DNA from: Schmidtea nova
Taxonomy: Eukaryota
Length of the DNA: 64,000 nt
Direction of reading: 5' to 3'
Assembly (NCBI GenBank): GCA_044892505.1
Contig: CM097882.1
Location: forward strand, 379,812,001 to 379,876,000
Shown: positions 16,912 through 43,668 of the stretch, piece after piece
Numbering within the stretch: the stretch's first letter is position 1
How the letters are laid out: the number at the start of each line of letters is the position of its first letter
The notes under the pieces: generated by a model
Told to the model about the DNA's origin: nothing
The model's database searches: none
What the model saw: only the letters and a program-made list of their open reading frames with translations
Program-made: the position numbers and the translations under genes

Positions 16912-17047
16912 ATTGGCTAACCAACAACACCGGTTGAGTATAAATACTGAAGTCAAATCAGTATTTGACAATGTCATTTTACCGAGTGCAAGTTGTAACT
17001 GATAACTTGTAGTAATCTTGTGAACCAATCGAAAATAAAAGGTAATT
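16912..17047 (+). promoter_or_regulatory. LTR core promoter, poly(A) signal and candidate major splice donor
   Basis: ATTGG (CCAAT box) at 16912, TATAAATA at 16939-16946, hairpin GTCAAAT-cagt-ATTTGAC at 16952-16969, AATAAA at 17034-17039, and AG|GTAATT at 17041/17042. Confidence 0.6.
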
Positions 17048-18612: not shown

Positions 18613-18789
18613 TCACGAGGACGACATCCCAATGAACGAATATCTGTTGTGAATTAAAAATATATGTATCCATTTAAAAGGGTTTTGTTTTGGTTTTGGA
18701 TGCATGGGGAATGAGTAAGGATAAGGGTGCAGTTGTTTAACGGTAAAATGGTGACTGAGAAACCAAACGATACATACATACCCTAGTTA

Positions 18790-19371
18790 ATGATACATTA
18801 CTCAGATATGGACGAAAATCCCAATCTAGATTACAAGCAAGAGGCACGCGAACATAGAGCACGATCTCGTGTCCTCGAGAGTCGCTTGAGACAGCTGAAT
18901 GAGGAGCACCAGCGGATTAAGGCAACATGGTTTAATCCTGAGAGGGTTAAAACCATCTTACAAGCCCGATACAGAGCGGAACGAACGATCGATGAACAAG
19001 CGAGAGAGGTCGCAGCCCTGAAATTAGAGTTGGCCAATTATTTAAAGGTGTCTACCCAAGACTTCATCGCTGAGCAATTGCGTCCAGTGATTAGAGCGAG
19101 CACCTTTAACAAATGGTTAAATTCGACATCAGCAACGACGAGTACGCAAACCGACGAAGAGATAATCGTAACTACGGCAACCGAGATGACCACAATCATA
19201 CCACGAGGGTCGCAGAGGACAAAACGAAGGAACCGCTTAGGGGCGAAAAAGCGGAGGGAGCGACGCGCATATGCAGATCGCGTAGGAATAGAAGTAGACT
19301 TGCTCAGTGGCCTATCTGAACAAGAACTACTAAATGTAATTAGACCCTCTGTATTGTTAAACTATAAATAA
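18790..19371 (+). CDS. LTR-encoded 193-aa coiled-coil protein with an Arg/Lys-rich motif
   Basis: Intact ORF containing KRRNRLGAKKRRERR; AATAAA follows the stop. Confidence 0.6.
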   Translation: MIHYSDMDENPNLDYKQEAREHRARSRVLESRLRQLNEEHQRIKATWFNPERVKTILQARYRAERTIDEQAREVAALKLELANYLKVSTQDFIAEQLRPVIRASTFNKWLNSTSATTSTQTDEEIIVTTATEMTTIIPRGSQRTKRRNRLGAKKRRERRAYADRVGIEVDLLSGLSEQELLNVIRPSVLLNYK

Positions 19372-19761
19372 ATGTATAAAACTAATGATTTGACTTGTCT
19401 TGTTTGTTTGTGGAATGTCTGAGAATTGAATATAACTAAAACCCGGATTCATGTAAAACTGCAGATGCGCTAAGATTAAATTACCCTAGAGCAAAAGAAA
19501 GAGCATAAGTGGGACCGAAAGAAATCCACAGACGCCTTCTATCGGTAGTGGTGGACCCGTGAATAAACAAGGGAATAGTAGCCGAAAGGTTGCTCACCTG
19601 CCTTGTCATTTCACAACGTTGACACAGTACCAACATGATGAGTAGTTAGGGATACATCATGGGTGTCAGCGGGGGAATGTTTTTATGTTGGCGAGATCAC
19701 CCTAACATATAAAATCATGAGGATCTCAGTTGTCAATCTAACCAACACACCAGCATAAATT

Positions 19762-19780
19762 TGGGGGCTCAGCCGGGATT
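19762..19780 (+). promoter_or_regulatory. Primer-binding site, tRNA-Pro-like
   Basis: TGGGGGCTCAGCCGGGATT lies 6 nt after the LTR end. The canonical Pro PBS is TGGGGGCTCGTCCGGGAT (2 mismatches). Confidence 0.85.
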
Positions 19781-20313: not shown

Positions 20314-20772
20314 ATGGAGAACAAAATAAAAGAAATGCAAACGTTTTTCGAGACAAATAACGAGACAATGGAGATAATAATGAGAAAGTTAAGACGACTC
20401 GAGGTAGGAGGATATCACAAACCGACAAACAAAACAGAAAGAGCCGAAATGATGATGAGCATAAGCGAGAATAAGATAACAGTGGATACAGCAACACGAT
20501 ATCAGTGGTATAGAGAAAGATTAAACAACCCTGAGATGAATATCGAGTGCCACAGGCTAGAACAACAAATTGCAACAAAACACGATGAGTGGATAAGAAT
20601 AACAACCGAACATACGAGACAATATCTGACGTGTTACATCTGTGAAATGAATAAGATACAGATACTGTTGTTGCCGTGTGGGCATTATCGATTCTGTAAT
20701 GAGTGTAAAATAAATGAACGATGTCCTATGTGCAACCTTCCCGTATCCGAGAAAATAACAGTGTACTTGTAA
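20314..20772 (+). CDS. 152-aa protein with a C-terminal IAP/MDM2-type C3HC4 RING (no BIR domain)
   Basis: CYICEMNKIQILLLPCGHYRFCNECKINERCPMCNLPVSEKITVYL at the extreme C-terminus. Confidence 0.85.
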   Translation: MENKIKEMQTFFETNNETMEIIMRKLRRLEVGGYHKPTNKTERAEMMMSISENKITVDTATRYQWYRERLNNPEMNIECHRLEQQIATKHDEWIRITTEHTRQYLTCYICEMNKIQILLLPCGHYRFCNECKINERCPMCNLPVSEKITVYL

Positions 20773-23744: not shown

Positions 23745-26700
23745 ATGAGTGATCACAGAGAGGATCTAAGAGAAAAATTCAAGGGCGAACCATTCAACGG
23801 AGACGCCAGTAGATTGGATACGTTCCTGAAGGAATTTGGTATATTTGTGGATATATGCGGATGGAGTGCAGAAACGTTGGCAAATCGAATCCCGCTATAC
23901 TTGAAAGATAGCGCATTGGATCTGTATATTGAAAAGAGATCGGGAAGTAGTCCACCCAGAACGTGGGAAGCGATCAAGGAGTTCTTCCAACAGACGTTTG
24001 GGATAAACAAAGTGCTGAATGAAGCATTCGATGAGTTCTCAGCAAGAAAACAGAGGAGAAATGAGTCAAATGCGGTGTACGCAAGTGAATTAAGAAAGTT
24101 GGCGAAACTGGCATTCAACAGAGGAAGTCCAGTAGACGAAGAATTGATGACAGCGTTATTCGTACGAGGTCTCAGGAGACCTGACATCAGAGCACAAGTG
24201 GGATGCAAAGGATGTAAAACAGTAGATGAAGCGTTGGAAGCAGCCAACCTATTCGAATTGCATATGGCAATGAATGACATGAGAATTACGGCGGTAATGG
24301 GAAAAACGACGGAAGATGAAGAACAAGGAAAAAGAAACATGAATCAAAGTATTCCCCATTCGCAGAGATTGTTCAAAGAACCGCCAACGAGGAAGAATAA
24401 CGGATATATTACGGTGAATACGAATGGAGGAAATAGTTACAATGATAGGCAGAATAGGCAATGTCAGACGTGTGGAAAAAACGGACATTGGCAACAAGAT
24501 TGTTTTCAGAATGTAGCCTGCAAACTGTGCGGACAAAAAGGTCACTCAGAGAATCGATGTTATGGGAAAACGTGTTACACATGTGGAAAAACCGGACACA
24601 TGTCAAAAGACTGTAATCAACAGAGAAATTGGTCAAACAGTGGAAATAGACCGAATTACGGGAATCGACCAAGCTATGGGAATCAAGGTCAACAACGGAA
24701 CAACCCAAACAGCAGTGCAAACGAAGCTAGTATGAAAGAAGCTAAGTTGAGACAGGAGGTGTCTAGATTACACGAGATAATCGAAAGCATGGCAAAGGGA
24801 AGCCAACAAGCTGCTCAACCAAAGATAAACATGATCCAGTTAATAGAAGCTGAGGCTGAAAGAGAAAATAGAGAAAGCCAACAGAAACATAACCAAGAAT
24901 GGGCTAGAGTACGACGAGAAGAAGAACAAGTCAGGCAACAACGATTACAACAGTTAAAAAAGGGAAATCCAAGGATCAACATGATGCGAGCAATGATGGA
25001 AGAGAAGCAGCAGGATGAGTCAGACGAGTTAGAAGTTAAAGAGAAAAGAAACGAAGAGCAGAAACAAGAAGAAGTGAGTCAGGAAGTAGAAGCCACAGAG
25101 CAGAATCAAAAAGTTGAAGAAGTAGAAAAAGAAACAGAAATAGAAAAAGAAACAGAAAAAGAAACGAATCAAGAAGAGGAAGTGAGAATCAAACAAAGAG
25201 GAATGTTGGTGATCATGCCGAATGATCACGTGTGGCGATTCAAATACGATGTAAAAGAAGAAGTGGGAAGATTGTTCAATAAAGTAAATGAGATGATGCC
25301 GGGAGTGACGAAACTGCCCAGAGAAGCATTCCTACAAACAGAAGATCTACCAGAAGTGAAGTTAAAGATGACTGATATATGGGAAGATATGGGAGTAACG
25401 GAGACGAAAATAAACGTGATGATCATCAGAGAGGTGGAACCGGAGAAAATCCCACCACCAGTGAAACATCAAACTCGGATCAGTCGAATATTCAAAGGAA
25501 AAATAAGACGAAGACGGTTGGAAGAAATAGATGAGTTGGAGAAAAGAATGGGAAAAGCTGAAGTAACAGGAAACGAGAATGAACTAATACAAGAAGTTAG
25601 CAAAAACGAAGCGAGACCAATCGCACATATTGGGATGCTGAGACACCCAAGACAAGAGTTGTCAGATGAAGAAGACGACAGCGAAGTTAGCAGTCTGGCA
25701 GGAGACATGCTAAAGGAACCGGAAAACGAGGATAAAAAGATGGAAGTAGTCGAGACAATAGAAACAATGTCAGTAAAGGAAGACGAAATTCAGAAGCTGA
25801 TGGATAACGCGTTGGAAGTAATCCATAACGAGGAGTTTATTGACACGAAACGATACCGAAAGTTTATACGAGCAGTATGGCAAATGAAGTACAAAGAGTG
25901 GTTACAAGAAAGAGAAGTGAGGGTAATACAAGAGTTCATAGAGAAGTTATTGAAAGAACCACTCAACGAATATGTAATACAAATATGGATAAACGAGTGT
26001 TCACCGAGAATCTGGATAAGGAACCCAATGACAGACGGAATTTACCGATGGGTTGAGGACAGATTGGGAAGCTCGTACCAAGACAAATTCATATATTCGG
26101 AAAACGGATTGGTGAGAAAAGGAACGCATATGATAGACACGGGCATCTGGCCAGGAGAAATAACGACGTTATCTATATGCAACACCAAGAAGGAAGAGAA
26201 CTTACAAGGAATCGTCAAAGAAGCGAATACGTGTTATGAGATGAGAATAAAACCTCAGTTGCTAGAGGCAAAGGAAAGAATCTTGGCAGAGAATTTGAAT
26301 ACGATGATAGAACAGATCATACAACAAATCAAGAAACATCGAAAGAAATTGACGAAAAGCGAGTATGAGAATTTGAAACAGTGTATCGAGAACATACGAG
26401 ATACAAGTCAAACGAGACATTCAAATTTCAAAACAGACAAGCTAATCGCAAAGATGGGAAAAGAAATGTTTAAAAGAGGAGAAGTATCAGATCTGAAGAT
26501 TACCGTGAGATTACCGAATGAAGAGACAAGACAAATTGAGGTAATACCAGATAGTAAAGTGGGAGAAATAGTAGATGTCATCAATGAGACGATATTACAA
26601 CGAGAACGGGAAGATGAATTCGAGGATGACATTGCGATAAAATACAAAGAACACCTACTAAACGAACGTGACGAAAGACGAGCGTATAAAATCGGCATAT

Positions 26701-29700
26701 GGGATAATTATCAGACAATACATGTCATCAGAATGGATGATGTGCAAAGAGCAACACCAAGGGATGAAAAAAGGAGAAAGAAACGACAAGAGGACGTTAT
26801 GCGCAAGCTGAGGCAGATAGTAGAAATCTATCGGAACTGGCAGATGAAGCCAGAATGGGAGACAATATTAGGAGAAGTGGATCTTAACAGACGACGATTG
26901 ACGCCAGTGGAAAAACAATGGGATAACAAGGAGAAATGTTGGAAAGTGAAAAGAGGCGTGTATGAAGAAGATCCGGAAGGAGAAGACGGATATGAACTGA
27001 ATACGAAACGGATATGTATGGTAACAAGGAAGTTATTACCAACGGACTTAGACGGACCAGAAACTGCAGTAATATGGGCAGAATTGGAGAAACAGAAAAC
27101 GAGTGAATTGATAGAGCTGTTGAGAGGAAACACTCGGGGAAAAAGACAAACAATAAAAGGCTTAGCACAATTCATAATCTCAAATGGAGAAGATATAACG
27201 AACTTGAGAAAAGTAGCTAAAGCGATAGCAGAATACAAGAGAGTTAACGAGTGGTGTCCAGAGCAACTAGACGATGTAATAAAAAAGTGGAGAAACAAAG
27301 AGTTTGCGGAGGAAACGCCACAGAAAATACATTTGAGGATAATGTATCCGAATCAGAGAAAAGAAGAGTTTTGGGTGATGCTAACGGAAAAAGTGAAAAG
27401 TGTTAAAGAGAAACTGATGTACGAACTACCATTCCACCTGCAACATCAAGGACGATCGTTGGATAACAATTTGGAAATCTGGCTGACACCAGTGCAATTG
27501 GATCTAATGAATACGCTAACAGTGGCACAAATAGTGGGTCAACCACTGAAGTTTAAAGAGGAAAAGAAAGCGAAAGGAAGCATGAGTACACCAAGTCCGA
27601 TGAAGTCAACAATGACCCCAGGAACAAGTTCGGGACAAGCAAAGACAACACCAATAAAAACGAGAGAGAGAACACCGCCAGAAGCGTATGACGTCGATGA
27701 GATACTAACAGATAGTGATGAGGCGATAGAAGAACTAACGAAGTTGACTCAAAAACCAACGGCGAATATTTTCGACAGAATAATAGAGATGCCAATAACG
27801 TCACCAGCAGAAATCGACGACCAAGGAGTGGAACAGGAGGTAGTCATAGAAATGGTAAACGATTCGGAAGACGAACAAGAACAACCACAGTTTACTCAAG
27901 AAATGGAAAGATGGTTGGAACAACGAGCAAACGAAGGAAGAGATGTGACGGAAGAAACAGGAAGAGCAACGAGATTTGTAGAAACCGGAACTGGAATGGA
28001 AAAACGACCAAGAGGAAGATCAAAGATAGATCCAGCAACAGCAATTCCAAAGACAAGAGAAGAAAGGAGACAAGAGCAATGGGAGATTTGCTTGAAGAAA
28101 TTGGATAAAATCGCAGAGATCAGAGGAAAAGAAGAGAATCAAGTTTGTCAAGGAGAAGAATGGCTCACCAAAACGATAATGGATGTGTTAGCGATAATTG
28201 ATCCAGAATTAAAGAATTTGTGGCGGATAAACGAACCTAGTACAAAGGCACGGATGCTACACAATGCAATAGCACCGATTATGCCAGAATTAATTAAAGC
28301 GAAAACAAAATCGAATCATCTAGATTGGCAAGGAACCACAATGTTAATAAAAAGGCTACTGAACGGAGCAGAAACGGACAGCAAATATCTAGTAGCAATC
28401 TCGTATACAATATACAATTTGTTAACGCTAAGCCGAGGAAGTCCGAAGTCAAGTCCGATGGGAAGACATATTAAAAATACGGCGTTGATTATCGAGAAAG
28501 AAATTGAACCATATATCCTCAGAAAAGGAGGATGGGAAAAGTTCATAAAAGAGAACCAGACGAAAGAAGGCTCAAACGTCATGAGAAAGAAACTCGAAGG
28601 AGTATTGAGAGAAATGGAGAATAGACAAACGATGCAAGGAAACGGAAGATCGACGTTGAATTTGAACTCGATAATCATGATGATGTTAGTATGGTTGTTA
28701 AGCACAGAAGGTGTAACAACGTTCGAAGTATTTGATTGCGATCAAATGAAGTTAGGAGAAAAGTACTCATTGAGAGGTACGGAGCAATGCAAAGATGCAA
28801 CTCCCGTAGAGTTAAAAGAGATTAAAAAGGAACAATGGTACAACGTGTATCAAGAGGCAGAACTAATAAAGACAATGGTGAATGAATGCAAGGTGCAGAA
28901 GACGAGATTCGCATTTTATTGTGGGAGAGGACATTATTCAGCAATTGTCATGCCAGGAACAGAAAGAGAACCAATCGTGTTGCAAGGAGAAGACTGCGAA
29001 GCATTATTTAAACATGGAGAAGTAACAACGAGAGATAAAATCAAGATAAGAGGAAAGCCAGGAATGATGTTACAGCAGACGTATTATGTAGCAGGACGAA
29101 TTACGGGAGGAGAAGGGTATTGTCAAGGAGAAACCTACCCAATATTCGGAGTGCCTGCAACCAACTTAGTTGTGATGGATACGTACATAGTTGAACTGAA
29201 AAGTTACGAAGCATTTTTTGAACCAACCACAGGAGAAATGAAAACGTTATCCATGTGTAAAATCGACAGAAGCATGTGTCAAACGGGAATGTCAACATTG
29301 GTGTATAAACCAAAGGTGAACGAATGTCAATTACAACTGCTACAAGGAGCAAAGTTTGACGAAATTCAAGGGAAAACATTCCAAGAAGAAGATGATGATG
29401 ACAAAGCTAGAGCAAAACATCTCAAAGAGGCTTTAGAGAATAAAAGACAATTGAGACCAGATCACAAAGAAAAACGGATAGAGATGAGAACCACACCAAC
29501 AGTGCTGATAACCACAAATCAGGATGTGGGAATGAGATTCATAAAAGGGAAAGCAACCCTTAAGTGCAGTACAACAGTATACGAAACAAACTATCCAGGA
29601 ATATACGTGTCAAAGCAAGAAGTGCCGAATGCGAAACCCAAGATTGACACCATGGATATCAAGCTACACTTGTATGTGAATAATAAAATGGATTTCTTAT

Positions 29701-32700
29701 TCCATAGAGGACAAGCCTCATTGCAAAAAGTGTACTATGACCTGATAAACAACGATTGTATACTGAATCGAGAAATATTAAAGACAAAGTTGGCCGTAGC
29801 GATTACGAATCCAGATAGCGCGATGCCGTTATTACCACTGAGAGAAGGACATTTCGGAAGAGTGGTCGGAGAAGCAATGTATGTATACATTTGCGAAAAG
29901 ACACACGCATCGCTAGCAACAACAACGCAGTTGAAACCTGGACAATGTACAAACGAACTAGAAATCGATTACAAAGGAAAAGTACGATACGTTCAACCGG
30001 TGACGAGAATCATCAATCCACCAAGTTTTGAACCAAATCCATTCAACTGTAGTAACGCGTACGGACCGCTTTATCAGAAGCCAGATGGCAAATGGGTCAT
30101 GTTCCCAGGAAGAACTGAAGTATTAGCACCAAGAGAATTTGAGCTAATGCAGTTGTCAAAAGATAGACAGTTCAGCGACGTAGATGTCTCAAACAACGGA
30201 ATCTATAGTCCAAAAGATCTGGAAGCAGCAAGACAGAATATACTATTTCCGGCAAGAAGAGAAGCATTACTGTCAAATATCGTAACGATAACGGGAGGAA
30301 CGAATTATCGAGAAGGACCGAATTACGAACTGCTGTTGTCACCGGCACATTTCAAGAAAGCCACAGAAAATATGATGAAGGCGATGTGGGGAAGATTCCT
30401 GATATTTGGACAAATGATGGCTGGAATACTGGGAGTTATATTGATAATACAAATCGTCAGAGTGATAATAACGCAGATGTTAGCGTGTTTCGACATCTAC
30501 AAGAGAGAAAAGAAAGTGAATTGGAAAATGGTAGTAGGATTTTTACCATTCCTTGCGAAAACGATGGTGTTACATGGACACTCAAAAGACATACATCGAA
30601 TAAAGAGGTTGTTGAAGATACTTGCAAAAATGAAAGGAACTAACGAAGATGTCGGAAGAAAATTCAAAAAGATAATGCAAGATGAACAAGCAAGACGACA
30701 ACTGAAGAAGGAAAGGAAAGGATTATGGGAAAGAGTGAGAGGATATCGAACACAAGATGATTCAAGTAATGATGACGATGATGATGACGATCGAGGAGGA
30801 CAAGCGAATATAAACCAGATTCCACAGTATACCGAAAAGAGTGCAGTTGAGAATTGGAGATACAGCGCTCCACCTCAGTCGATGTATAACGAACCGATAT
30901 ACAAAGCGAAGCCGAATATGATGCAGATGATGCCGATGACAAGTATATACCCGATAATTCCAGAAGGATGCAAAGTAAAACGAGGTAGTAGCGTAAACTC
31001 GTTGGAAGACACGCACACGATAGCAGTTATGTCCACAAATATGGGACCCATCTTAACAACAACCGTAGAAATAAACGGAAGAGAAATTGAAGCTATGATC
31101 GATACAGGCGCGAATATTTCGGCGATCGACATTAATTATATACCAGAGAAAAACCAAGGAGAAATCGAGAAGACGAATGTACATGTAATCGCGTGCAGTC
31201 AAGAGACAGTAGAAGTAGCCGGAAGATGGTTTGTAAAAATTAAGCATCGAGGTGCAGAGATCAACACGTACATCGCTGTAATACCATCGCTGAGTGTACC
31301 ATGTATTATTGGAACTGACCTGATGCCAGACCTGTTCAAGGAAATCGTGATTGATCTAGGAGCAATGAAACTAAAAGATAGAACAGGAAAAATTTGCAGA
31401 ATGAAAGTTAAAGTGGCAAGTGCAGAACAAATAGTAGTGCCAGCGAGACATGAAAAGATGTGTTATGTCAAGATCGATTCAACAATAAAGGGAGATATGA
31501 TATTCGAACCAAGTAAGAAGTTCGAAGCGAAGAAGGAATTACCAATGGCAAGAGAACTGGTTACGACAAACCAAGAAGGTGAGATACCGATTAATCTGGT
31601 AAATTTCGACGAAGAGGACAAGATAATATACGAGAATGAGAGATTGGGTAAATTGACACCCATGTCCGAAATCGAAATACCAGACAAGAATGAGTGGGCA
31701 AAGGCCAAAGAAACGATCAAGCAAAGTAGACTAGGAAACATAGAACCATCCAAAGATATGGAAATACGAGAATTCGAGTCTAGCACACTCGCGGTTCAAG
31801 CGTATGAAAGATTAATTGAAGAAATTAATGTCGAGGACGACATTTTTAAAGGACCAGGGGGTGGTTCCAAAGATCACAACGATAAAGGAGACGCCGAAAA
31901 GGAGAACAACGAGGATAACAACAGCAACAGCGACAACAAAAGAACGGAAGATGAGGAAAGAGAGAGACAAGAAGAACCGAAGCCAACGAGAAACGACAAG
32001 AAAGGAGAAGCCGAAGAACGAGACAACAGTGGAACAAAAGATGAACATGCGAACTATGGAAAACGAACAGGAAGTCTACTTTTGAGACCAGAAATGTTGT
32101 GTATTGCGATATTGATAACAATCATCGGACAAGGAGAAGCCAAGAAACAACACGTCACGCTAGAGATAATCAGAGGAAACGAAGTATACGAAAGAATATG
32201 CTGGAAAGAAAACATGAGGAAAAACGATACGCTGAAGTGCATATTGTCAGATTTGAAGAAAGACGTCATCCAAATCAAAGGATTGGAGAAAGAAAAGTCA
32301 TACATAATATGCGCAATAAAGCAGAGAGGAGAACCGAAAGCACCTCAAGTAACTGCATGTCAATTATATAAAGCAACAGAAGCGCTGAAAATACAGAAAT
32401 GGATTGAGAAAAGAAGCGAAGAGACAACGAGAAGAACAGAAGTAGAATCGGAGAAAGGGAAGAATCAATCTGAAGCAGAAAAAGGAATCGGAAACCGAAC
32501 GGAGAAAGAAAGAATAACCAAAAATTCAGCGGGAAAATTAACATTCCAACCGGAATTGATATGTGTAGCATTAATACTAATCCTCATTAAGAGAATCATG
32601 GAGGACATAGATATTAGCGTAATGACGTTAGTAAATATCCAAGACCAACGAACAACGAACGGAAGATGTTGGGGACGAAACAATGAGGTAATTGGAATCA

Positions 32701-34019
32701 GCGAAACAAGAGAAAGTCGAGAGGCAGAGACAAATGAGGAAATCGAGATAACCGAAATGGAAACAGAGAAAACATGTGAACTATGCCTCATGGAAAAGGC
32801 AGCAAACGGAAACAGACCAGGAACAAGCGAGTGTAAAGTGTTCCAAGCAAAGGAGATAATTGAGTTCCCAAAAAGAAAGAAACAAGATCAAGAAACGATT
32901 GCGAATGAAGTAGTAACAGTGGAGATAAAAAACATTGGTCGGAGAACAATTGGGATGTGTTGGAGAAAATACATCGGAGTACCGACCAACAACGTACTAC
33001 CGCAATGCAAAACGAGAGAACGAGGAATCCCGTTTCAACTAAATGGATTCGAAGTCGGACAAGCATATGAAATTTGCGTAATCCGAAGAATAAGAGAAAT
33101 AATACAAAGAAGCCTGGAATGTAAACTATACAAGACGCCAGAGCAAATTAACGGAACAAGAACGATCGAAATGGGAGGAAGTCGACAGAGGAAAAGAAAG
33201 TCAAGAAGAACCACGACAGCCAACAGTCAAGGAACTCAACAGGCAACAACAGAAAGGATGACAATAGAAAACGAACCGGAATCAACAACGTTGATAATAT
33301 GGAAGATCCATAAAAAGGTCCTAGAAATCTGTTGGACGTTGATGCCAAACAGTATGGGAAAGTCCCCACGAAACTGTCAAAAGACATCAAATGACAAAAG
33401 GGAAACAATCGAGGTAGAAATGAGGAAGTTGAAAACAAATGCAGAATACGAAGTGTGTGCAATCGAAGAAGTAGATGCACAAGGAAATCAACAGGAAAGG
33501 TGTGAAACCTATTACACGCCAAGAAACGTAACGATAAAGAGGAGAATCAAAAAGTTAGAATTCCGAGAATTGAGTCAGAAGAGAGAACAAAACGAGAAGG
33601 AGGAGACAATACCAAGTCGACAAGAAAAATGGGAACCAGAGAAAGTGATCGAAGAAGTCAGACGGAGACAACAACAATACGAACAATGGGAAGCAGAATG
33701 GAAAGGTCAATATGGCGTGATGATAAACCAAAGTGAGACTCCAAGAAGGAGCATTGGGAAAACAATAATGGGATTAATCAGCATGGGAGTATTCATAGGG
33801 TGTATACCACTGATAACGATCATGATAGTATGTTGGAGATATGGCATGAGAAATAAGACCATAGCAGTAAAATGGCCAGACGTAAAGGTCATGAATTACA
33901 ACATAAAACTACCAAAAGAAGTACGAGAAGAGCTGAAAAGACGGTCAAGACATGAAGAGATGTGGGTACAGATCGAGGACGAGGAACTGTACGAAGGAAA
34001 ACCAGTAATAGTTGTATAG
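23745..34019 (+). CDS. 3424-aa polyprotein: Gag + 3 CCHC, UBL domains, Bcl-2-like domain, chuvirus-type env, retropepsin, dUTPase-like segment, 4 FN3-like modules, TM
   Basis: Gag FNGD..F..EF..RKQ..NES; knuckles at 24462-24614; EPYILRKGGWEKF (BH2-like) at 28500-28544; signal peptide followed by FDC..YSL..C..FYCG from 28668; TM at ~30395-30480; AMIDTGANIS (DTG at 31101) and IIGTD; terminal TM at ~33765-33836. Confidence 0.93.
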   Translation: MSDHREDLREKFKGEPFNGDASRLDTFLKEFGIFVDICGWSAETLANRIPLYLKDSALDLYIEKRSGSSPPRTWEAIKEFFQQTFGINKVLNEAFDEFSARKQRRNESNAVYASELRKLAKLAFNRGSPVDEELMTALFVRGLRRPDIRAQVGCKGCKTVDEALEAANLFELHMAMNDMRITAVMGKTTEDEEQGKRNMNQSIPHSQRLFKEPPTRKNNGYITVNTNGGNSYNDRQNRQCQTCGKNGHWQQDCFQNVACKLCGQKGHSENRCYGKTCYTCGKTGHMSKDCNQQRNWSNSGNRPNYGNRPSYGNQGQQRNNPNSSANEASMKEAKLRQEVSRLHEIIESMAKGSQQAAQPKINMIQLIEAEAERENRESQQKHNQEWARVRREEEQVRQQRLQQLKKGNPRINMMRAMMEEKQQDESDELEVKEKRNEEQKQEEVSQEVEATEQNQKVEEVEKETEIEKETEKETNQEEEVRIKQRGMLVIMPNDHVWRFKYDVKEEVGRLFNKVNEMMPGVTKLPREAFLQTEDLPEVKLKMTDIWEDMGVTETKINVMIIREVEPEKIPPPVKHQTRISRIFKGKIRRRRLEEIDELEKRMGKAEVTGNENELIQEVSKNEARPIAHIGMLRHPRQELSDEEDDSEVSSLAGDMLKEPENEDKKMEVVETIETMSVKEDEIQKLMDNALEVIHNEEFIDTKRYRKFIRAVWQMKYKEWLQEREVRVIQEFIEKLLKEPLNEYVIQIWINECSPRIWIRNPMTDGIYRWVEDRLGSSYQDKFIYSENGLVRKGTHMIDTGIWPGEITTLSICNTKKEENLQGIVKEANTCYEMRIKPQLLEAKERILAENLNTMIEQIIQQIKKHRKKLTKSEYENLKQCIENIRDTSQTRHSNFKTDKLIAKMGKEMFKRGEVSDLKITVRLPNEETRQIEVIPDSKVGEIVDVINETILQREREDEFEDDIAIKYKEHLLNERDERRAYKIGIWDNYQTIHVIRMDDVQRATPRDEKRRKKRQEDVMRKLRQIVEIYRNWQMKPEWETILGEVDLNRRRLTPVEKQWDNKEKCWKVKRGVYEEDPEGEDGYELNTKRICMVTRKLLPTDLDGPETAVIWAELEKQKTSELIELLRGNTRGKRQTIKGLAQFIISNGEDITNLRKVAKAIAEYKRVNEWCPEQLDDVIKKWRNKEFAEETPQKIHLRIMYPNQRKEEFWVMLTEKVKSVKEKLMYELPFHLQHQGRSLDNNLEIWLTPVQLDLMNTLTVAQIVGQPLKFKEEKKAKGSMSTPSPMKSTMTPGTSSGQAKTTPIKTRERTPPEAYDVDEILTDSDEAIEELTKLTQKPTANIFDRIIEMPITSPAEIDDQGVEQEVVIEMVNDSEDEQEQPQFTQEMERWLEQRANEGRDVTEETGRATRFVETGTGMEKRPRGRSKIDPATAIPKTREERRQEQWEICLKKLDKIAEIRGKEENQVCQGEEWLTKTIMDVLAIIDPELKNLWRINEPSTKARMLHNAIAPIMPELIKAKTKSNHLDWQGTTMLIKRLLNGAETDSKYLVAISYTIYNLLTLSRGSPKSSPMGRHIKNTALIIEKEIEPYILRKGGWEKFIKENQTKEGSNVMRKKLEGVLREMENRQTMQGNGRSTLNLNSIIMMMLVWLLSTEGVTTFEVFDCDQMKLGEKYSLRGTEQCKDATPVELKEIKKEQWYNVYQEAELIKTMVNECKVQKTRFAFYCGRGHYSAIVMPGTEREPIVLQGEDCEALFKHGEVTTRDKIKIRGKPGMMLQQTYYVAGRITGGEGYCQGETYPIFGVPATNLVVMDTYIVELKSYEAFFEPTTGEMKTLSMCKIDRSMCQTGMSTLVYKPKVNECQLQLLQGAKFDEIQGKTFQEEDDDDKARAKHLKEALENKRQLRPDHKEKRIEMRTTPTVLITTNQDVGMRFIKGKATLKCSTTVYETNYPGIYVSKQEVPNAKPKIDTMDIKLHLYVNNKMDFLFHRGQASLQKVYYDLINNDCILNREILKTKLAVAITNPDSAMPLLPLREGHFGRVVGEAMYVYICEKTHASLATTTQLKPGQCTNELEIDYKGKVRYVQPVTRIINPPSFEPNPFNCSNAYGPLYQKPDGKWVMFPGRTEVLAPREFELMQLSKDRQFSDVDVSNNGIYSPKDLEAARQNILFPARREALLSNIVTITGGTNYREGPNYELLLSPAHFKKATENMMKAMWGRFLIFGQMMAGILGVILIIQIVRVIITQMLACFDIYKREKKVNWKMVVGFLPFLAKTMVLHGHSKDIHRIKRLLKILAKMKGTNEDVGRKFKKIMQDEQARRQLKKERKGLWERVRGYRTQDDSSNDDDDDDDRGGQANINQIPQYTEKSAVENWRYSAPPQSMYNEPIYKAKPNMMQMMPMTSIYPIIPEGCKVKRGSSVNSLEDTHTIAVMSTNMGPILTTTVEINGREIEAMIDTGANISAIDINYIPEKNQGEIEKTNVHVIACSQETVEVAGRWFVKIKHRGAEINTYIAVIPSLSVPCIIGTDLMPDLFKEIVIDLGAMKLKDRTGKICRMKVKVASAEQIVVPARHEKMCYVKIDSTIKGDMIFEPSKKFEAKKELPMARELVTTNQEGEIPINLVNFDEEDKIIYENERLGKLTPMSEIEIPDKNEWAKAKETIKQSRLGNIEPSKDMEIREFESSTLAVQAYERLIEEINVEDDIFKGPGGGSKDHNDKGDAEKENNEDNNSNSDNKRTEDEERERQEEPKPTRNDKKGEAEERDNSGTKDEHANYGKRTGSLLLRPEMLCIAILITIIGQGEAKKQHVTLEIIRGNEVYERICWKENMRKNDTLKCILSDLKKDVIQIKGLEKEKSYIICAIKQRGEPKAPQVTACQLYKATEALKIQKWIEKRSEETTRRTEVESEKGKNQSEAEKGIGNRTEKERITKNSAGKLTFQPELICVALILILIKRIMEDIDISVMTLVNIQDQRTTNGRCWGRNNEVIGISETRESREAETNEEIEITEMETEKTCELCLMEKAANGNRPGTSECKVFQAKEIIEFPKRKKQDQETIANEVVTVEIKNIGRRTIGMCWRKYIGVPTNNVLPQCKTRERGIPFQLNGFEVGQAYEICVIRRIREIIQRSLECKLYKTPEQINGTRTIEMGGSRQRKRKSRRTTTANSQGTQQATTERMTIENEPESTTLIIWKIHKKVLEICWTLMPNSMGKSPRNCQKTSNDKRETIEVEMRKLKTNAEYEVCAIEEVDAQGNQQERCETYYTPRNVTIKRRIKKLEFRELSQKREQNEKEETIPSRQEKWEPEKVIEEVRRRQQQYEQWEAEWKGQYGVMINQSETPRRSIGKTIMGLISMGVFIGCIPLITIMIVCWRYGMRNKTIAVKWPDVKVMNYNIKLPKEVREELKRRSRHEEMWVQIEDEELYEGKPVIVV

Positions 34020-34141: not shown

Positions 34142-34492
34142 ATGAATCAAGAAAATATCGAGATGTCGATGATGACAAGATGGAAAGTGCAATGTGACCT
34201 GCTAGCCAGAACAGTAAATGAATTACAGAGCCAGTTGACGGCCAAAACACAATTATTAACCGAGAGTTATAACTGTAATTTCGAAGCAATGAACAAAATT
34301 GAGATTCAACAACTACAGATAAACGAATTACAGAACGAGAACCGAACATTAAATGAAGTGAACAACTGGCAAGCAGAGGAAATTGACCGATTAACGAGAC
34401 ATGAAGAAGAAGAGATACCGGATAGTTGGACGAGCTGGATTGTGAATGAGATAGACGTGTATCCAGAGCCGGATTCAACTGAGGATGTATAG
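34142..34492 (+). CDS. 116-aa coiled-coil cargo protein
   Basis: Intact ORF with the same purine-rich sense strand; its C-terminus (YPEPDSTEDV) resembles that of the 386-aa ORF (FHEPEETDV). Confidence 0.65.
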   Translation: MNQENIEMSMMTRWKVQCDLLARTVNELQSQLTAKTQLLTESYNCNFEAMNKIEIQQLQINELQNENRTLNEVNNWQAEEIDRLTRHEEEEIPDSWTSWIVNEIDVYPEPDSTEDV

Positions 34493-34581
34493 TGAATAAG
34501 CGGAAAATTGTGTAAATACGTGTAAATAAAGAACCAGAAAAATCAAAAATATGGGGAAATTGATGTAAATATTGTTGTAGA

Positions 34582-35994
34582 ATGAGAGCAGAAAGTGAAG
34601 CAGATTACCAAACAATCGAGATTCTAAGAGGAGAGAATCGACAATGGGGAGTAAATGTGACGTGTGTAAAGTGTAAAAATTTACTGTTAAAACCGAGACA
34701 AACGGAATGTGGATGCAGGATGTGCACCAAGTGTATATTGCAAATAATCAGTGAAAGTGAGACAAGAAAGTGTCCAGAGTGTGACGATAAACTACTGATC
34801 AACGAGACAAAACCAGATAAAGCAATACAAAAGGAGATCTGGAAGATAAAAACAGAGTGTATAAACCAACCATGCGAATGGAAAGGACAAATAATCGAGC
34901 TAAGACAACATCTGGAGAAATGTGAAAACAAGAAAGCGATATGTGAAAAGTGCCAACAGACGATAACCATCAAGCAGTCAAAAAAGCACAAGGACGAGTG
35001 CAAAGCAGAGATAATAGAGTGTCAATACTGCGAACAAAGAGAGACGAGAGAAGTAATCGAAACAGAGCATCTCAACGTAGCAGAAGAGAAAGTGTGTAGA
35101 AAATTCAGAGGAATTTGTCCAAGTAATTGTGGAGCAGGAGAAGAAGTGATGTTGAAAGAACATTGGGAACAGTGCGAATCCAGACCAAGAAAGTGCGTAT
35201 GGAGTAAACAAGGATGTGCAGTAAAGAAAACGAGCAAAGAGATGAAAGAGCATTTGGAAACGGAAACGGTACAACACGCCGAGATGTTAACAGCGAATTT
35301 GAACGGAATGGAGCAAACCATACAGAAACTGGGAAAAGAAATCGAATCTCAGAGGATAATGACGGAGTTATTACTGGAAACGAGAGAGCAATTCGAGCTC
35401 ACCGGAGAAAAAATGATGGAGAAAATCAAAGTCATAGAGACATTGGTAAAAGAAGTAAACGTGAGACATCAAATGTGGATACGAGATACAGAGGATATCG
35501 AGAATTTACCGGTCGCACCATATGTATGGAAAATCAAGAACTTCAATGACAAATTCGCAGCAGCAAAAGCAGGAAGTCAAGTGTCGGTAACAAGTCCACC
35601 ATTCTATCTGTGGAAAAATGGATACAAAGTCCGGATGAGAATTTATGCAAATGGAGATGGATCAGGAAAGGAAACGCATGTGTCGTTATTCTTCGCGTTG
35701 TGTAAAGGTGGTTACGACGACATATTAGAATGGCCACTAGAAACAAAGGCTATAATGAGAGTGAAAAACTCGAAAGAAACAATAGCGAGAGTATTCAAAA
35801 TTGATGGTAAGCACGAAGCTTACAAAAGACCAACCACAGAATGTTCATTAGCGACTGGAGAACCAAAATTCATACCACACCAAACAACGTGGGAGATGTT
35901 GTACGATGACAACTTATATGTAGAATTGGAAATCGAAAAGAAAGCAAGTACAACAGTGATGAACACGAAGTGCACGAAAGGATGGTTAGAGTAG
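34582..35994 (+). CDS. TRAF: Intronless full-length TRAF-family protein (RING, TRAF zinc fingers, coiled coil, MATH)
   Basis: CVKC..PRQTECGCRMCTKC..CPEC; PDKAIQKEI..C.N..C.W.G; CVWSKQGC; MATH domain YVWKIKNF..SPPFY..GYKVRMRIYANGDGSGKETHVSLFF.L.KG.YDDILEWP. Confidence 0.95.
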   Translation: MRAESEADYQTIEILRGENRQWGVNVTCVKCKNLLLKPRQTECGCRMCTKCILQIISESETRKCPECDDKLLINETKPDKAIQKEIWKIKTECINQPCEWKGQIIELRQHLEKCENKKAICEKCQQTITIKQSKKHKDECKAEIIECQYCEQRETREVIETEHLNVAEEKVCRKFRGICPSNCGAGEEVMLKEHWEQCESRPRKCVWSKQGCAVKKTSKEMKEHLETETVQHAEMLTANLNGMEQTIQKLGKEIESQRIMTELLLETREQFELTGEKMMEKIKVIETLVKEVNVRHQMWIRDTEDIENLPVAPYVWKIKNFNDKFAAAKAGSQVSVTSPPFYLWKNGYKVRMRIYANGDGSGKETHVSLFFALCKGGYDDILEWPLETKAIMRVKNSKETIARVFKIDGKHEAYKRPTTECSLATGEPKFIPHQTTWEMLYDDNLYVELEIEKKASTTVMNTKCTKGWLE

Positions 35995-36083: not shown

Positions 36084-37244
36084 ATGGAAAACGCAAATGA
36101 ACATGTAAGCGAAGATGACACGAGAAACGAGATGTCAAACGAACGAGAATCAATAGAAAGAGAAATCGAAAGGAGATGTAAAATGGAAGTGGAACAAAGA
36201 ACCAGAGAATTAAACGAAGTAATGACAAATAATTTCTACGAGAAACTAAAATGTGAGAGACGAACGGAGTTATATCAACTAGAACTCGAGGAAGTAAATA
36301 AAGAGATAGTACAACTGACAACACAAATGGAGAAGCTAAAAGGAACGAATGTACGAAGTCGACAGAAGATAGAAGAGACCTATCAGTTGATGAGGAAACA
36401 AGCAGAACATTATAAAAATATGATGAAAACACGAAGAGAAGAGAGGGAGAAACAAGAGGAAAAGATGGAGGTAAAAATACTAGCAATCAAGGCTCAAGCG
36501 AGACATTGGAAGATGGAGTCGAAACGAGTGTATAAAGAAGCCAAAGAAATAATCAGAAAGACAGCATACAGCGAAGATTGGAAACTGTATCAAGAGATAG
36601 ACGAATTGAAAGAGGAATTGGAACAGAAAAAGCGACAAGAACAGACAAACAAAGAATGGAGTCGAAAACGACAGCGATTTATTCGAGAACAGGCGAAGGA
36701 ACTAAAGAAAACGCAATGGCAAATACAGATGATAAATGGAGAAATGCGAGGCATTAGACAGAAAGAGGAAGCGGAAAGACAAAAGTTGATCAGGGAAAAA
36801 GAAAGTCTGGAAAGAGATGTAAATGGCTACCAAGGAGTAGTGACTCAAAAGAAAATGGAACTGAAAGCTGTGAAGGAAAGACATGCGGAATCAAACCGAG
36901 CTTATGAGGAAAATATAACGAACTTGACGAAAGAAAACGAGGAACTGAAACAACAAATAAGAACCCTGAAAGCAGAGAAAGAAACCCCAGAAATAGAAAC
37001 CGAACCACCAGAAGCAGAAGCCCTGAAGAGAAAAGTGGAAGAAATGGAAAGACAAATCGAAACTCTGAGCGAACAATCAGACTACATGGAGTATCTGTTA
37101 GATGAAGAGATACAAATCTCTCGAACGTATCAAGATGAAATCGCAATGTGGCGAAGCAGAGTGGTGTGGTTACCGTTTATACCACCACCACCAATGGAAC
37201 TCCAAGATGAAGGGTTCCATGAACCAGAGGAGACGGATGTGTAA
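36084..37244 (+). CDS. 386-aa coiled-coil cargo protein
   Basis: Long intact E/K/R-rich heptad ORF. Confidence 0.75.
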   Translation: MENANEHVSEDDTRNEMSNERESIEREIERRCKMEVEQRTRELNEVMTNNFYEKLKCERRTELYQLELEEVNKEIVQLTTQMEKLKGTNVRSRQKIEETYQLMRKQAEHYKNMMKTRREEREKQEEKMEVKILAIKAQARHWKMESKRVYKEAKEIIRKTAYSEDWKLYQEIDELKEELEQKKRQEQTNKEWSRKRQRFIREQAKELKKTQWQIQMINGEMRGIRQKEEAERQKLIREKESLERDVNGYQGVVTQKKMELKAVKERHAESNRAYEENITNLTKENEELKQQIRTLKAEKETPEIETEPPEAEALKRKVEEMERQIETLSEQSDYMEYLLDEEIQISRTYQDEIAMWRSRVVWLPFIPPPPMELQDEGFHEPEETDV

Positions 37245-37317: not shown

Positions 37318-37842
37318 ATGAACTGGCTCAAAACCCTACCAATCCTAACGATTATGTTAACTACAACAATAATGACCTGTTCAACAACCGAAATCCAAAG
37401 AACCCTGTCAAACGAGATATCCCAAGAAATCGAAAAACAACTAAACGAAGTCAGAGAAGACTTGGAACAATTAATCCGACAAATGCGAATCAGTCATGAT
37501 CATCGCAAACCCTTACAAACCCTATTCAACCAAATCGAGAAGATCCGAGAAATCCATAAAACATTCCAAGATCACCTAAAGCCCATCAAAGGCCAAACCC
37601 AAATCGAATCCGAAATCCGAAACAGATGGATCATCGTGGGAATAGTCACAATGACAATACTGACAATCATCCTGATCATCGTGATTACGCATACCCTATA
37701 TCGAATCAGAAGCCTCAAACAACAACAAACGATAATGTGTAGATGCGCCAAACGAGAAGCAAAAACCCAACAAAGGATGAGAAGTCATCTACGACAAATC
37801 CAAGCCCGATACGAAATGCAGTCAACCAGTGAAAGGACCTGA
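37318..37842 (+). CDS. 174-aa predicted type I membrane protein (signal peptide, helical ectodomain, TM)
   Basis: N-terminal MNWLKTLPILTIMLTTTIMTC and TM WIIVGIVTMTILTIILIIVITHTLY. Confidence 0.75.
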   Translation: MNWLKTLPILTIMLTTTIMTCSTTEIQRTLSNEISQEIEKQLNEVREDLEQLIRQMRISHDHRKPLQTLFNQIEKIREIHKTFQDHLKPIKGQTQIESEIRNRWIIVGIVTMTILTIILIIVITHTLYRIRSLKQQQTIMCRCAKREAKTQQRMRSHLRQIQARYEMQSTSERT

Positions 37843-39486
37843 AAACCGACCCCTATGAGCCAGAAACATTGAACTGTGTATAAACAATAAAAACATGACA
37901 AGGACAATGTGTGACTTTGTAAAAATGGGTATAAAAGCTACCACCTTATGTGGTTTTGCATGTAAGTTCTGTCACGAACTTTTTATGTATGTTGATGTAG
38001 GTATATGCATGTAATTGCGGGACGCAATTTTAGGGGACCCCGAGTGATGTTGGGCCAGCCAAATCGAGCAGCATCTGAAAATAATGTACAATCAATAAAA
38101 TAAATTAAATACAGAATAACAACAAAATAAATTACCAACACCAAAGCGTAACAAAATAAGCGGCAACATCTAAAAGAAATAAAGTATTAACCAAAACAAA
38201 ATAAAACTCAAGAACTTACTCATGCGAAACAGAAAAAATCTGAATATGACAGCGCGTGGGCGGATGTCACCGAAGAGCTAAAACAAAATCAAATAAAAAT
38301 TAAATCGTACAAAAAATAAACTTACCGCATGATTAACCAAATCAATCATTGAGTTGAGTTAGGCACCAAAAAGCCGGCAACACAAAATAATGAAGCAAAC
38401 ATACACACATACTCGATGCTGATTGGCTAACCAACAACACCGGTTGAGTATAAATACTGAAGTCAAATCAGTATTTGACAATGTCATTTTACCGAGTGCA
38501 AGTTGTAACTGATAACTTGTAGTAATCTTGTGAACCAATCGAAAATAAAAGGTAATTTCGAGTTATGTTTTGATGTATTTAAACCCTCATAATTATGTTA
38601 AAATCCATAAGGTTTTCCGGAGGCCTAACAGCCTGACGGATTCTTTGGCCTCTCAGCGCAACACACCTTATCGGTTGTGAGGTACTGATGCGGCGGGACC
38701 ATAAGTTTACTAAATACTTGATGGGGGAAAAAGGGGATGCACATAGGGTATCGAGTAAGACCTAATGATCATGAACTAAGTCAAGGTAGAGACGGTCTAG
38801 TACAAACGCTATGCATCACGATAATAAGGTATCGAGTGACAGTTAATGGTCATAAATCGAATCAAGGTAAAGCTCATTTCGCAAGGGAAGATATATACAT
38901 GAGGTATCTTGACGAGGGGGTGTACCTTCAAGGAGTGCTGGTACATCAAAAGTCGATGAGAATCGGGATAGGTAAAGCGTAACATGGTGGTCAAAGGACA
39001 TTAGCGCCAAGGGGCAGTAGTGAACCGAATGAGTTGCTAATAAATACATATAATCCCACTGAGGGCATGAAAAGTCAGACCCGATAGTAGATAAAATTAG
39101 TGCGTTTCTCAACGAAGTAGTTGACTAAGGGATTACTAAATTTTCCCCGTGACGTGAATCTTGATAGTTGCTGATGATGATCCGTAAATGAACCATGTTG
39201 AATGAATGAAAATGATCGATGAGAAATTAAATGTAACGTAAAATATGATTGTAAATAACAAGTCGAAATGAGCGTAGCTAAAACCAACTGAAATTGCGGA
39301 GTGAATCAACTCACCCAAGTAAAGTCACCACCTACATGAACACCGCGACCAATGGTCTAGTAAATTATATACGAGCTACAAGGCCTACGGCTAATAGAAC
39401 GATAAACCAAGTAGGTTGATCGACATAAATATCGATGGTCGATGATAGAGTCTGTCAGTTAACCTAAAATTCCATTTCAGAGTGAC

Positions 39487-40122
39487 ATGATGAAGACCGA
39501 ATATCTCATGAAGGAGCCGGTAGGACCCCTAACCGTCAAATCAGAGGAGTACATTCTACGGAGGAAACGGCGCATCCGCTCCGTCATCACACCAAAATTA
39601 CCTATCGAAATCCAAGGAGAGAAGGAGGCCCCACGCCAAATTTTCAACTCCGCACGTAGACACCTGCGTCGATGGACAAGGACCCATATGAGCACAGCGG
39701 CAAGTATTCCCGCCTGTGCATTCCAACTACAGCTGAGGTGGGAAGGCGATGTCAATTGGACGCCCTCCCCGAACCCCACCAAAGATGGATACGAAAGATG
39801 GTTCTATCAATTTGTAGATGAAACACAACAACCCCGCTGGGTACTAAGCACCGGAATGATGACCGGGCAGGCATTCGGCCAACTCGGGTATTTGCTGCTA
39901 GACAGGCCTCGGTGTGGTGACACTGGGGAAGTCTTCGTTTACCCGAACGCCCCAGGCAGTGTTTCCGTGGATCAACACCCCGAGCCCAAAGACCTTCGCC
40001 TCTGGGAGGTGTTCATTTATCAAAACAAACTGAGTTGGAATCCGGCCCCCGAACTATACCATGAAACAGGGATTCGCCGAGACGAGAACCCGGCCGATCA
40101 AGAGTTACGACCATACAATTGA
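39487..40122 (+). CDS. 3'-LTR copy of the 211-aa ORF
   Basis: Identical translation to 17977-18612. Confidence 0.6.
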   Translation: MMKTEYLMKEPVGPLTVKSEEYILRRKRRIRSVITPKLPIEIQGEKEAPRQIFNSARRHLRRWTRTHMSTAASIPACAFQLQLRWEGDVNWTPSPNPTKDGYERWFYQFVDETQQPRWVLSTGMMTGQAFGQLGYLLLDRPRCGDTGEVFVYPNAPGSVSVDQHPEPKDLRLWEVFIYQNKLSWNPAPELYHETGIRRDENPADQELRPYN

Positions 40123-40299
40123 TCACGAGGACGACATCCCAATGAACGAATATCTGTTGTGAATTAAAAATATATGTATCCATTTAAAAGGGTTTTGTTT
40201 TGGTTTTGGATGCATGGGGAATGAGTAAGGATAAGGGTGCAGTTGTTTAACGGTAAAATGGTGACTGAGAAACCAAACGATACATACATACCCTAGTTA

Positions 40300-40881
40300 A
40301 TGATACATTACTCAGATATGGACGAAAATCCCAATCGAGATTACAAGCAAGAGGCACGCGAACATAGAGCACGATCTCGTGTCCTCGAGAGTCGCTTGAG
40401 ACAGCTGAATGAGGAGCACCAGCGGATTAAGGCAACATGGTTTAATCCTGAGAGGGTTAAAACCATCTTACAAGCCCGATACAGAGCGGAACGAACGATC
40501 GATGAACAAGCGAGAGAGGTCGCAGCCCTGAAATTAGAGTTGGCCAATTATTTAAAGGTGTCTACCCAAGATTTCATCGCTGAGCAATTGCGTCCAGTGA
40601 TTAGAGCGAGCACCTTTAACAAATGGTTAAATTCGACATCAGCAACGACGAGTACGCAAACCGACGAAGAGATAATCGTAACTACGGCAACCGAGATGAC
40701 CACAATCATACCACGAGGGTCGCAGAGGACAAAACGAAGGAACCGCTTAGGGGCGAAAAAGCGGAGGGAGCGACGCGCATATGCAGATCGCGTAGGAATA
40801 GAAGTAGACTTGCTCAGTGGCCTATCTGAACAAGAACTACTAAATGTAATTAGACCCTCTGTATTGTTAAACTATAAATAA
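40300..40881 (+). CDS. 3'-LTR copy of the 193-aa ORF
   Basis: Differs from the 5' copy by one L/R substitution. Confidence 0.6.
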   Translation: MIHYSDMDENPNRDYKQEAREHRARSRVLESRLRQLNEEHQRIKATWFNPERVKTILQARYRAERTIDEQAREVAALKLELANYLKVSTQDFIAEQLRPVIRASTFNKWLNSTSATTSTQTDEEIIVTTATEMTTIIPRGSQRTKRRNRLGAKKRRERRAYADRVGIEVDLLSGLSEQELLNVIRPSVLLNYK

Positions 40882-41640
40882 ATGTATAAAACTAATGATT
40901 TGACTTGTCTTGTTTGTTTGTGGAATGTCTGAGAATTGAATATAACTAAAACCCGGATTCATGTAAAACTGCAGATGCGCTAAGATTAAATTACCCTAGA
41001 GCAAAAGAAAGAGCATAAGTGGGACCGAAAGAAATCCACAGACGCCTTCTATCGGTAGTGGTGGACCCGTGAATAAACAAGGGAATAGTAGCCGAAAGGT
41101 TGCTCACCTGCCTTGTCATTTCACAACGTTGACACAGTACCAACATGATGAGTAGTTAGGGATACATCATGGGTGTCAGCGGGGGAATGTTTTTATGTTG
41201 GCGAGATCACCCTAACATATAAAATCATGAGGATCTCAGTTGTCAATCTAACCAACACACCAGCACATCGTAATGGATACAATAATATTCGATTGTGATA
41301 TCACGTTATGATGATCTGAAAGTAGGCAGTTATGTGGAGCATGAGTCATCGCCGAACAAAGGAAATGACGTCACCCCCCATGGGTTAGGAAAATTTTTAT
41401 GACATATCGCGATGACTCATCGATGACTCATTTCAAATTTGAATTTTATGACGTCATCAACGACTCATTTCAATTTCAAATTTTAAATTTGAATTTCCAA
41501 AGGTCAAATAAGGTCAAACCTTCAAACAAGGGTATCATTCGAATGGTCTTTGAGAGGTGCACACAATGGTCATACCCTCGAATGTTTATGGAGGGTTCTT
41601 AACCTTCAAAGGGTGCAAAACCTTCAACCTTTTTCAAACC

Positions 41641-41687
<47 letters not shown>

Positions 41688-42746: not shown

Positions 42747-42785
<39 letters not shown>

Positions 42786-43630: not shown

Positions 43631-43668
<38 letters not shown>

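Follow-up and report, generated by a model that had tools for sequence, protein, structure and literature searches.

A full-length TRAF gene maintained under purifying selection in a giant Burro-type LTR element of Schmidtea nova

We analysed a window of 64,000 nucleotides from the genome of Schmidtea nova, which contains a giant LTR element (positions 16538-41265, 24.7 kb) carrying an open reading frame for a full-length TRAF protein. The element has LTRs of 3,218 bp with TG...CA ends and is bounded by a CATC target duplication. The 5' LTR (16538..19755, + strand), within which ORFs of 211 and 193 aa are located, is directly preceded by one CATC, and the 3' LTR (38048..41265, + strand), which differs from it by 3 mismatches, is directly followed by the other. 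The stretch after the 5' LTR (19756..19780, + strand) is, judging from its position, a putative primer-binding site; 2,886 copies of its 20-mer are present in the genome. The 5' untranslated region contains a tandem array of 19-nt repeats as well as repeats of 84-85 nt (window positions 21460-22050 and 22300-22910).

All genes of the element are encoded on the + strand. The first is a 152-aa ORF (20314..20772; dN/dS 0.19), which ends in an IAP-type RING (matches to the RINGs of cIAP2, cIAP1 and XIAP at E 5e-6 to 2e-5) and has no BIR domain. It is followed by a 3,424-aa polyprotein (23745..34019), comprising Gag with CCHC knuckles, a mononegavirus-like fusion glycoprotein, an aspartic protease and a C-terminal hydrophobic segment. 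The fusion protein (PF24664, E 9.9e-68, aa 1912-2253) lies in frame between the CCHC knuckles of Gag and the protease. A helical stretch of the polyprotein (dN/dS 0.04) was screened for a BCL2-like domain and had no match in Pfam, PDB or the Atlas; its model reached a pLDDT of 51, and Bcl-xL appeared as weak rows at E >1 in one comparison and was absent from another. Downstream of the polyprotein lies a cassette of four accessory ORFs of 116 aa (34142..34492; dN/dS 0.06), 470 aa (the TRAF, 34582..35994), 386 aa (a coiled-coil protein, 36084..37244; dN/dS 0.12) and 174 aa (37318..37842; dN/dS 0.14, with hydrophobic segments at the N terminus and internally). The C terminus of the 386-aa protein, ETDV, is conserved in 91-95 of 95 copies, and we take it to resemble a class I PDZ-binding motif; that of the 116-aa protein is TEDV. 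No classical PxQxT motif is present in the tails of the element's own proteins.

The surroundings of the element include further mobile DNA. A nested inverted-repeat DNA element (41320-52404) adjoins the 3' LTR and contains a hAT-type ORF (46424-47710, - strand) together with ORFs of 240, 177 and 691 aa. Positions 4669-7581 hold an intronless 970-aa ORF for a SNF2-type helicase, and at 62656-63678 there is an ORF of 340 aa that belongs to another element and includes a reverse-transcriptase domain.

The copy in the window is devoid of approximately 4.6 kb coding for reverse transcriptase (RT), RNase H, integrase and ankyrin, by which its sister copies are longer. The RT-integrase stretch is complete in 15 of 20 sampled sister copies, partial in one and missing from four, so that a family without RT can be rejected, and the copy in the window derives from a family that is autonomous. 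The LTRs are highly variable within this family (about 1.4-3.3 kb, with a middle part that is 70-98% identical or missing), while the internal region is approximately 95% identical. The size of the element, its long LTRs, the target duplication and the position of the fusion protein identify it as Burro-type, an assignment made from the layout and not from identity to the named Burro1-4 sequences.

The TRAF gene is a single unbroken frame of 470 aa, from the ATG at 34582 to a TAG ending at 35994. Its C-terminal part (aa 314-451) is a MATH/TRAF-C domain, recognized above the Pfam cut-offs (PF21355, E 3.9e-25; PF22486, E 6.2e-25) and matching the C-domains of TRAF5, TRAF3, TRAF1 and TRAF2 in the PDB at E 5e-27 to 1e-24. 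The N-terminal part consists of a C4C4-type RING (aa 28-67) and five Cys/His zinc-finger clusters (aa 93-232). The corresponding Pfam matches fall below the cut-offs (TRAF3_RING, E 1.4e-4, 21.9 bits against 26.9; zf-TRAF, E 3.1e-5, 25 bits against 27), and the region matches the RING-zinc-finger part of TRAF6 in the PDB (E 4.8e-13). An AlphaFold2 model based on a 121-row alignment (mean pLDDT 91.5, pTM 0.57) predicts a single long helix at aa 229-304 (pLDDT mostly >90), the coiled coil (TRAF-N) placed ahead of the MATH domain, and a beta-sandwich at 314-451. A Foldseek search with this model returned TRAF1/2/3 domains as the best matches (E 3e-17 to 1e-15) and also the N-terminal domain of TRAF6 (E 8e-11). 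The protein thus has the RING, TRAF zinc fingers, predicted coiled coil and MATH domain that define the TRAF family, and the statement of the initial annotation that all domains are intact and in frame is borne out.

The same annotation had noticed that the RING histidine is replaced by cysteine (motif CGCRMC), which is correct: the ligands are C28-C31-C43-C45-C48-C51-C64-C67, each conserved in 96-99 of 99 element copies, and the canonical His of C3HC4 RINGs is absent, with Cys at position 45 in all 99. A reading of this change as a lesion specific to the element did not hold. Cys is also found at this position in all three named Dendrocoelum TRAFs and in all six full host-type frames of S. 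nova that were aligned; of 120 aligned relatives, 31 have Cys and 67 have His. On this comparison, Cys45 is characteristic of the triclad clade and no lesion; the residue came along with the donor gene.

The peptide-binding pocket of the TRAF-C domain presents a mixed picture. R353, Y355 and D359, which we take to be the counterparts of TRAF2 binding residues, are conserved in 92-93 of 93 copies. Elsewhere the pocket has changed: E412/A413/Y414, S422, E427 and L386 are fixed at the same level, in place of the S/S/F, N, C and F found in most relatives. Host triclad TRAFs likewise deviate at part of the pocket. The partners of the element protein may therefore differ from those of classical TRAFs.

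Several features suggest how the gene might be expressed. The spacer ahead of it (34493..34581, + strand) contains an AATAAA, three TGTAAA motifs and a TAG ending 1 nt before the ATG, which is a predicted splice acceptor. All six ORFs of the window element have a pyrimidine-AG no more than 12 nt from their start, compared with 96 of 367 background ATGs. The spacers, 373 nt in total, contain 10 TGTAAA motifs against 0.45 in shuffled sequences (maximum 5), and their heterozygosity is 0.02-0.05 (0.02 in the pre-TRAF spacer) as compared with 0.12 at four-fold sites. Spliced-leader splicing occurs in flatworms. We infer that splicing takes place at the conserved AG before the TRAF start, either in cis or by a spliced leader, and that the protein is probably made from an mRNA that has been spliced. 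Four sequencing runs from one study, whose kind is unrecorded, covered the stretch evenly and contained no GT-AG joint, an outcome that speaks neither for nor against expression.

A second family of elements in the same genome carries a related cassette. A genome search with a database relative (P0009) gave 91 scored matches, all of which belonged to this other family. Three copies examined in full are about 25 kb long, have LTRs that are 99.95-100% identical, and lack Gag and RT. The cassette comprises a homolog of the 116-aa ORF (38% identity), a TRAF, an IAP with BIR and RING, a homolog of the 386-aa ORF (30-31% identity) and two more ORFs; the window family has the same order minus the IAP. 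The TRAF of this family (485 aa) is 36% identical to that of the window and has the CGC RING, and the IAP (389 aa; BIR PF00653, E 9e-14) has cIAP1 as its best PDB match and no relatives among the database proteins searched. A 24-mer from the spacer between the two genes occurs 1,078 times in the genome. The dN/dS values, 0.14 for the TRAF and 0.16 for the IAP, were obtained from 18 copies in which both genes were checked and may be biased low, these copies having been chosen mostly by protein similarity. A pyrimidine-AG is found near the start of 7 of the 8 ORFs of this family, or of all 8 if the second in-frame ATG of the TRAF is counted. The family (loci L218-L243, e.g. L221:118-3646; L224-L227) is of Burro type and very young, with 4-5 further accessory ORFs beside the TRAF-IAP pair.

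A third arrangement is seen in a Burro1-type element of the same genome, which has a 4,706-aa frame with the MATH domain alone inside the polyprotein. This element (C1 97.57-97.60 Mb, loci L061-L064) has LTRs of 3,966 bp (99.7% identical) and a 131-aa RING-like ORF upstream. In one rearranged copy (L067:2026-5937) the fusion-protein/protease frame reads directly into the MATH domain of the TRAF, so that a polyprotein-MATH fusion has been re-formed.

The number of copies of the window family allowed selection on the TRAF to be measured. A protein search yielded 3,158 candidates, the best 90 of which are 95-100% identical; as such a list favours intact copies, it was kept out of the selection statistics. 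An unbiased sample was drawn with a non-coding 20-mer located upstream of the cassette, which occurs 130 times in the genome (reversed control, 0), indicating at least 130 copies of the family. The statistics rest on 100 of these 130 places, chosen regardless of the state of the TRAF: the gene is intact in 74 copies, whereas 12 have a stop, 6 a frameshift, 7 a partial gene and 1 no gene at all. The pairwise dN/dS is 0.10 (dN 0.023, dS 0.23; 86 copies), as compared with 0.04 for Gag, 0.02 for the fusion protein, 0.02 for RT and 0.03 for integrase (15-16 of 20 copies).

We classed the TRAF variants, per codon column, by the number of copies that carry them. Omega was 0.74 (0.60-0.91) for singletons, which included 22 stops, 0.22 for variants present in 2-4 copies (1 stop) and 0.13 (0.10-0.18) for those present in 5 or more of the 100 copies (no stops), with off-frame controls at 1.0-1.9. 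The 12 stop-bearing copies carry 16 distinct stop alleles, all of them private. Given that shared variants are constrained and private ones nearly neutral, purifying selection on the TRAF acts, on these statistics, during replication of the element, and copies decay once inserted. Where LTR pairs could be aligned over at least 1.4 kb (11 of 20 copies) they were 99.0-100% identical. The insertions are thus young, the divergence between copies arose in replication, and, as read from these patterns, only lineages with a working TRAF went on spreading. The distances of neighbouring regions scarcely correlate (r 0.19, 0.03 and -0.01; 57 copies), which points to frequent recombination.

These data leave very little room for the TRAF being a passive passenger, captured recently or decaying neutrally, a reading that we consider scarcely credible. 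It could draw on the 26 of 100 copies that are broken, partial or without the gene. A neutral passenger is, however, refuted by the dN/dS of 0.10, attained at a dS of 0.23, and by the privacy of every stop allele; moreover, the gene has been kept in two families whose TRAFs are only 36% identical, and no close host TRAF was found. The neutral decay against which the initial annotation had proposed to check its idea is therefore not seen among inherited variants.

The large share of intact copies might also suggest that they aid the animal, for instance in stem-cell survival or regeneration, and that selection at the level of the host adds to the upkeep of the gene, as for the IAP of Burro1 (a precedent available second-hand, PMC13465017). 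A singleton omega slightly below 1 points in the same direction. The high proportion of intact genes is, however, explained by the youth of the insertions. Private variants are near neutral, with stops among them, the TRAF is disabled as often per kb as the neighbouring ORFs (0.15 against 0.13-0.19), and no domesticated single copy was found. We regard such a contribution, which would be compatible with the role preferred below, as improbable.

The origin of the gene was approached through the TRAFs of the host. A family search of the genome found host-type TRAFs, many of them clustered on one contig (C2 405-455 Mb). Many members of this cluster have RING and MATH in separate frames, and there are several tandem arrays with a spacing of 4-5 kb. 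The nearest named relatives of the host-type TRAFs are those of Dendrocoelum. At least eight distinct host-type loci (6 among the 30 best, 2 among the extra loci) encode everything between RING and MATH in a single stop-free frame, and in several others the two domains lie in separate frames. The lack of introns, which the initial annotation had taken as a sign of retro-capture, is consequently no proof of it, being shared by host-type loci.

Its remaining arguments for an old capture followed by selection fared better. No host TRAF nearly identical to the element protein was found, the best host frames being 32-33% identical over long alignments and 42% in the MATH domain. The A-rich codon style was also confirmed: at four-fold third positions the TRAF (A 0.59, T 0.05) resembles the element polyprotein (A 0.56, T 0.07) and differs both from eight host TRAF frames (A 0.25-0.41, T 0.20-0.41) and from the flanking SNF2-type ORF (A 0.33, T 0.27). 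In full-length trees, built from 23-55 rows chosen among about 150 matches and the genome loci, the element TRAF falls inside a triclad-type clade (100/100), where it is joined by unnamed database proteins of similar composition (99/99) and forms one clade with the TRAF of the second family (100/99), although the element rows were flagged for biased composition, which may inflate their grouping. The phylogeny that the initial annotation had called for sets the element TRAF apart from both host groups, its placement in either being rejected (p-AU 8e-5 and 2e-6). The element and two host clades form a three-way fork at the base of the tree (host monophyly, p-AU 0.45). Transfer from host to element would be the simplest reading of this fork. 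The low identity to host TRAFs, the element-like codons and the clade with the TRAF of the second family make it likely that the capture is old. The MATH domain inside the Burro1-type polyprotein joins the element TRAF group in three trees (95/84, 93/93 and 92/79), which suggests that it and the full-length TRAF stem from one capture with different fates.

Its dN/dS shows the TRAF protein to be of importance, but the ratio is silent on the direction of its effect. TRAF2 recruits cIAPs via its coiled coil. On balance we favour, with modest confidence, a role of the captured TRAF as a trimeric signalling adaptor which recruits IAP ubiquitin ligases and keeps the host cell of the element alive. 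A TRAF captured long ago from the triclad family, and retained by selection in replicating lineages, would be made from a spliced transcript of the element, form a trimer, as expected from its family, and bind an IAP as in the TRAF2-cIAP complex. The pairing of TRAF and IAP genes is seen only in the sister family, and no BIR domain was detected in the window element or in 145 loci of its family; the IAP would therefore be supplied by the host, or in trans by the sister family. A diffusible accessory protein can be under selection only if the copy that makes it profits, and survival of the producing cell fits this need, as a copy's TRAF would thereby raise its own propagation. RNAi of host planarian TRAFs is reported to raise cleaved caspase-3, and host TRAFs to be needed for cell survival (PMC7586133). 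Burro1 is transcribed on loss of PIWI control (PMC8532177), and its BIR-RING IAP shields stem cells from apoptosis, according to a second-hand report (PMC13465017).

The protein might instead act as a decoy, joining host TRAF trimers or occupying receptor sites and so damping innate-immune or wound signalling (TAK1/p38/JNK, RIG-I-like), for which no IAP would be needed; the absence of BIR from the window family would fit this. Conservation of the coiled coil and of the surface formed by R353/Y355/D359 (92-93 of 93 copies) contrasts with drift elsewhere in the pocket. Planarian traf2-1 is described as an inhibitor of infection-driven signalling (PMC4993586), and TRAFs of Dugesia as responsive to poly(I:C) (PMC7958881). 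A pure decoy would, however, be expected to drop its RING and zinc fingers, as did the Burro1-type polyprotein, which has MATH only. Among variants in 5 or more copies, omega is 0.06 in the RING and 0.16 in the zinc fingers, similarly to the MATH domain (0.13), with 0.09 in the coiled coil; constraint is not clear for the last 18 residues. We therefore hold a decoy to be a possibility of distinctly lower rank than the adaptor.

A pro-death function, in which the TRAF would trigger caspase activation and aid the release of particles, is very unlikely in our opinion. Its model is ORF111L, a viral TRAF of a fish iridovirus reported to promote apoptosis (PMC3352826), and the fusion glycoprotein of the element is indeed under strong selection. 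Against this, the TRAF adjoins an IAP in the sister family, and an element passed on through stem or germ cells would presumably lose by killing them.

If the adaptor role is extended to both families, Burro elements would have captured a TRAF-cIAP survival module in ancient times and would still possess all of it, arranged as a spliced, operon-like cassette. Its roughly 1,200 copies in one genome would fall into two families, one autonomous, with a TRAF but no IAP, and the other far more numerous and non-autonomous, with both genes but neither Gag nor RT. The two would exchange replication enzymes for anti-death signals in trans, and would provide some of the TRAF and IAP activity in the stem cells of the animal. 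We advance this wider picture tentatively, and consider it doubtful as a whole.

Signalling genes taken from the host are a hallmark of large DNA viruses, but LTR retroelements rarely have them. The IAP of Burro1 has been reported, second-hand, to support planarian regeneration (PMC13465017), and our finding adds its classical partner, a TRAF which, by sequence statistics, is selected on the side of the element and offers a target for knock-down. Planarians have an expanded TRAF/MATH repertoire, with 121 MATH domains reported (PMC6109357); part of this expansion, and RNAi directed against "TRAFs", may include element-borne genes. In the literature searched, with supplements and some key Burro papers outside the search, we came across no description of an LTR element with a full-length TRAF that includes the RING, of selection acting on such a gene, or of a TRAF-IAP tandem, and the main text of PMC11410931, in the part available to us, has no mention of TRAF or MATH. 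That Burro elements have MATH_TRAF_C cargo, in Dugesia tigrina as a separate ORF, is already published (PMC6431247).

The closest known systems are Burro1 (GYPSM1) and Burro2-4 of Schmidtea mediterranea, giant Ty3/gypsy-like LTR elements of 25-30 kb (PMC6431247). As described there, they share with the present element a single frame for Gag, protease and a mononegavirus-like fusion protein, with env between gag and pol, as well as ankyrin after the integrase (here in sister copies) and TRAF-derived and IAP-like cargo. In Burro1, however, only MATH_TRAF_C is present, inside the polyprotein, whereas the window element encodes the whole RING-zinc-finger-coil-MATH protein in a separate downstream ORF and, unlike Burro1, its family has no BIR. 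The Burro-like element of D. tigrina does have MATH_TRAF_C in a separate accessory ORF, but this lies upstream and only MATH is named for it (PMC6431247), while the TRAF of the window is full length, lies downstream in a four-gene cassette and has measured selection. ISKNV ORF111L, compared by description only, is likewise a captured TRAF carried by a virus, though that of a large DNA virus of fish, and reported as pro-apoptotic (PMC3352826). Vertebrate TRAF2/3/5 and the TRAF2-cIAP module resemble the element proteins in domain order and fold, and the adjacent TRAF and BIR-RING IAP genes of the sister family recall the same partnership; the RING of the element TRAF is nevertheless C4C4 and not C3HC4, and its serine-rich pocket is lost. 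With the host TRAFs of triclads (Dendrocoelum TRAF-2, -4 and -5; Smed-TRAF-2A/B) it has in common the clade (100/100), the CGC RING, a similar length and often a single frame, and it differs from them in its 27-33% identity, its element codons, its altered TRAF-C pocket and its more than 100 mobile copies.
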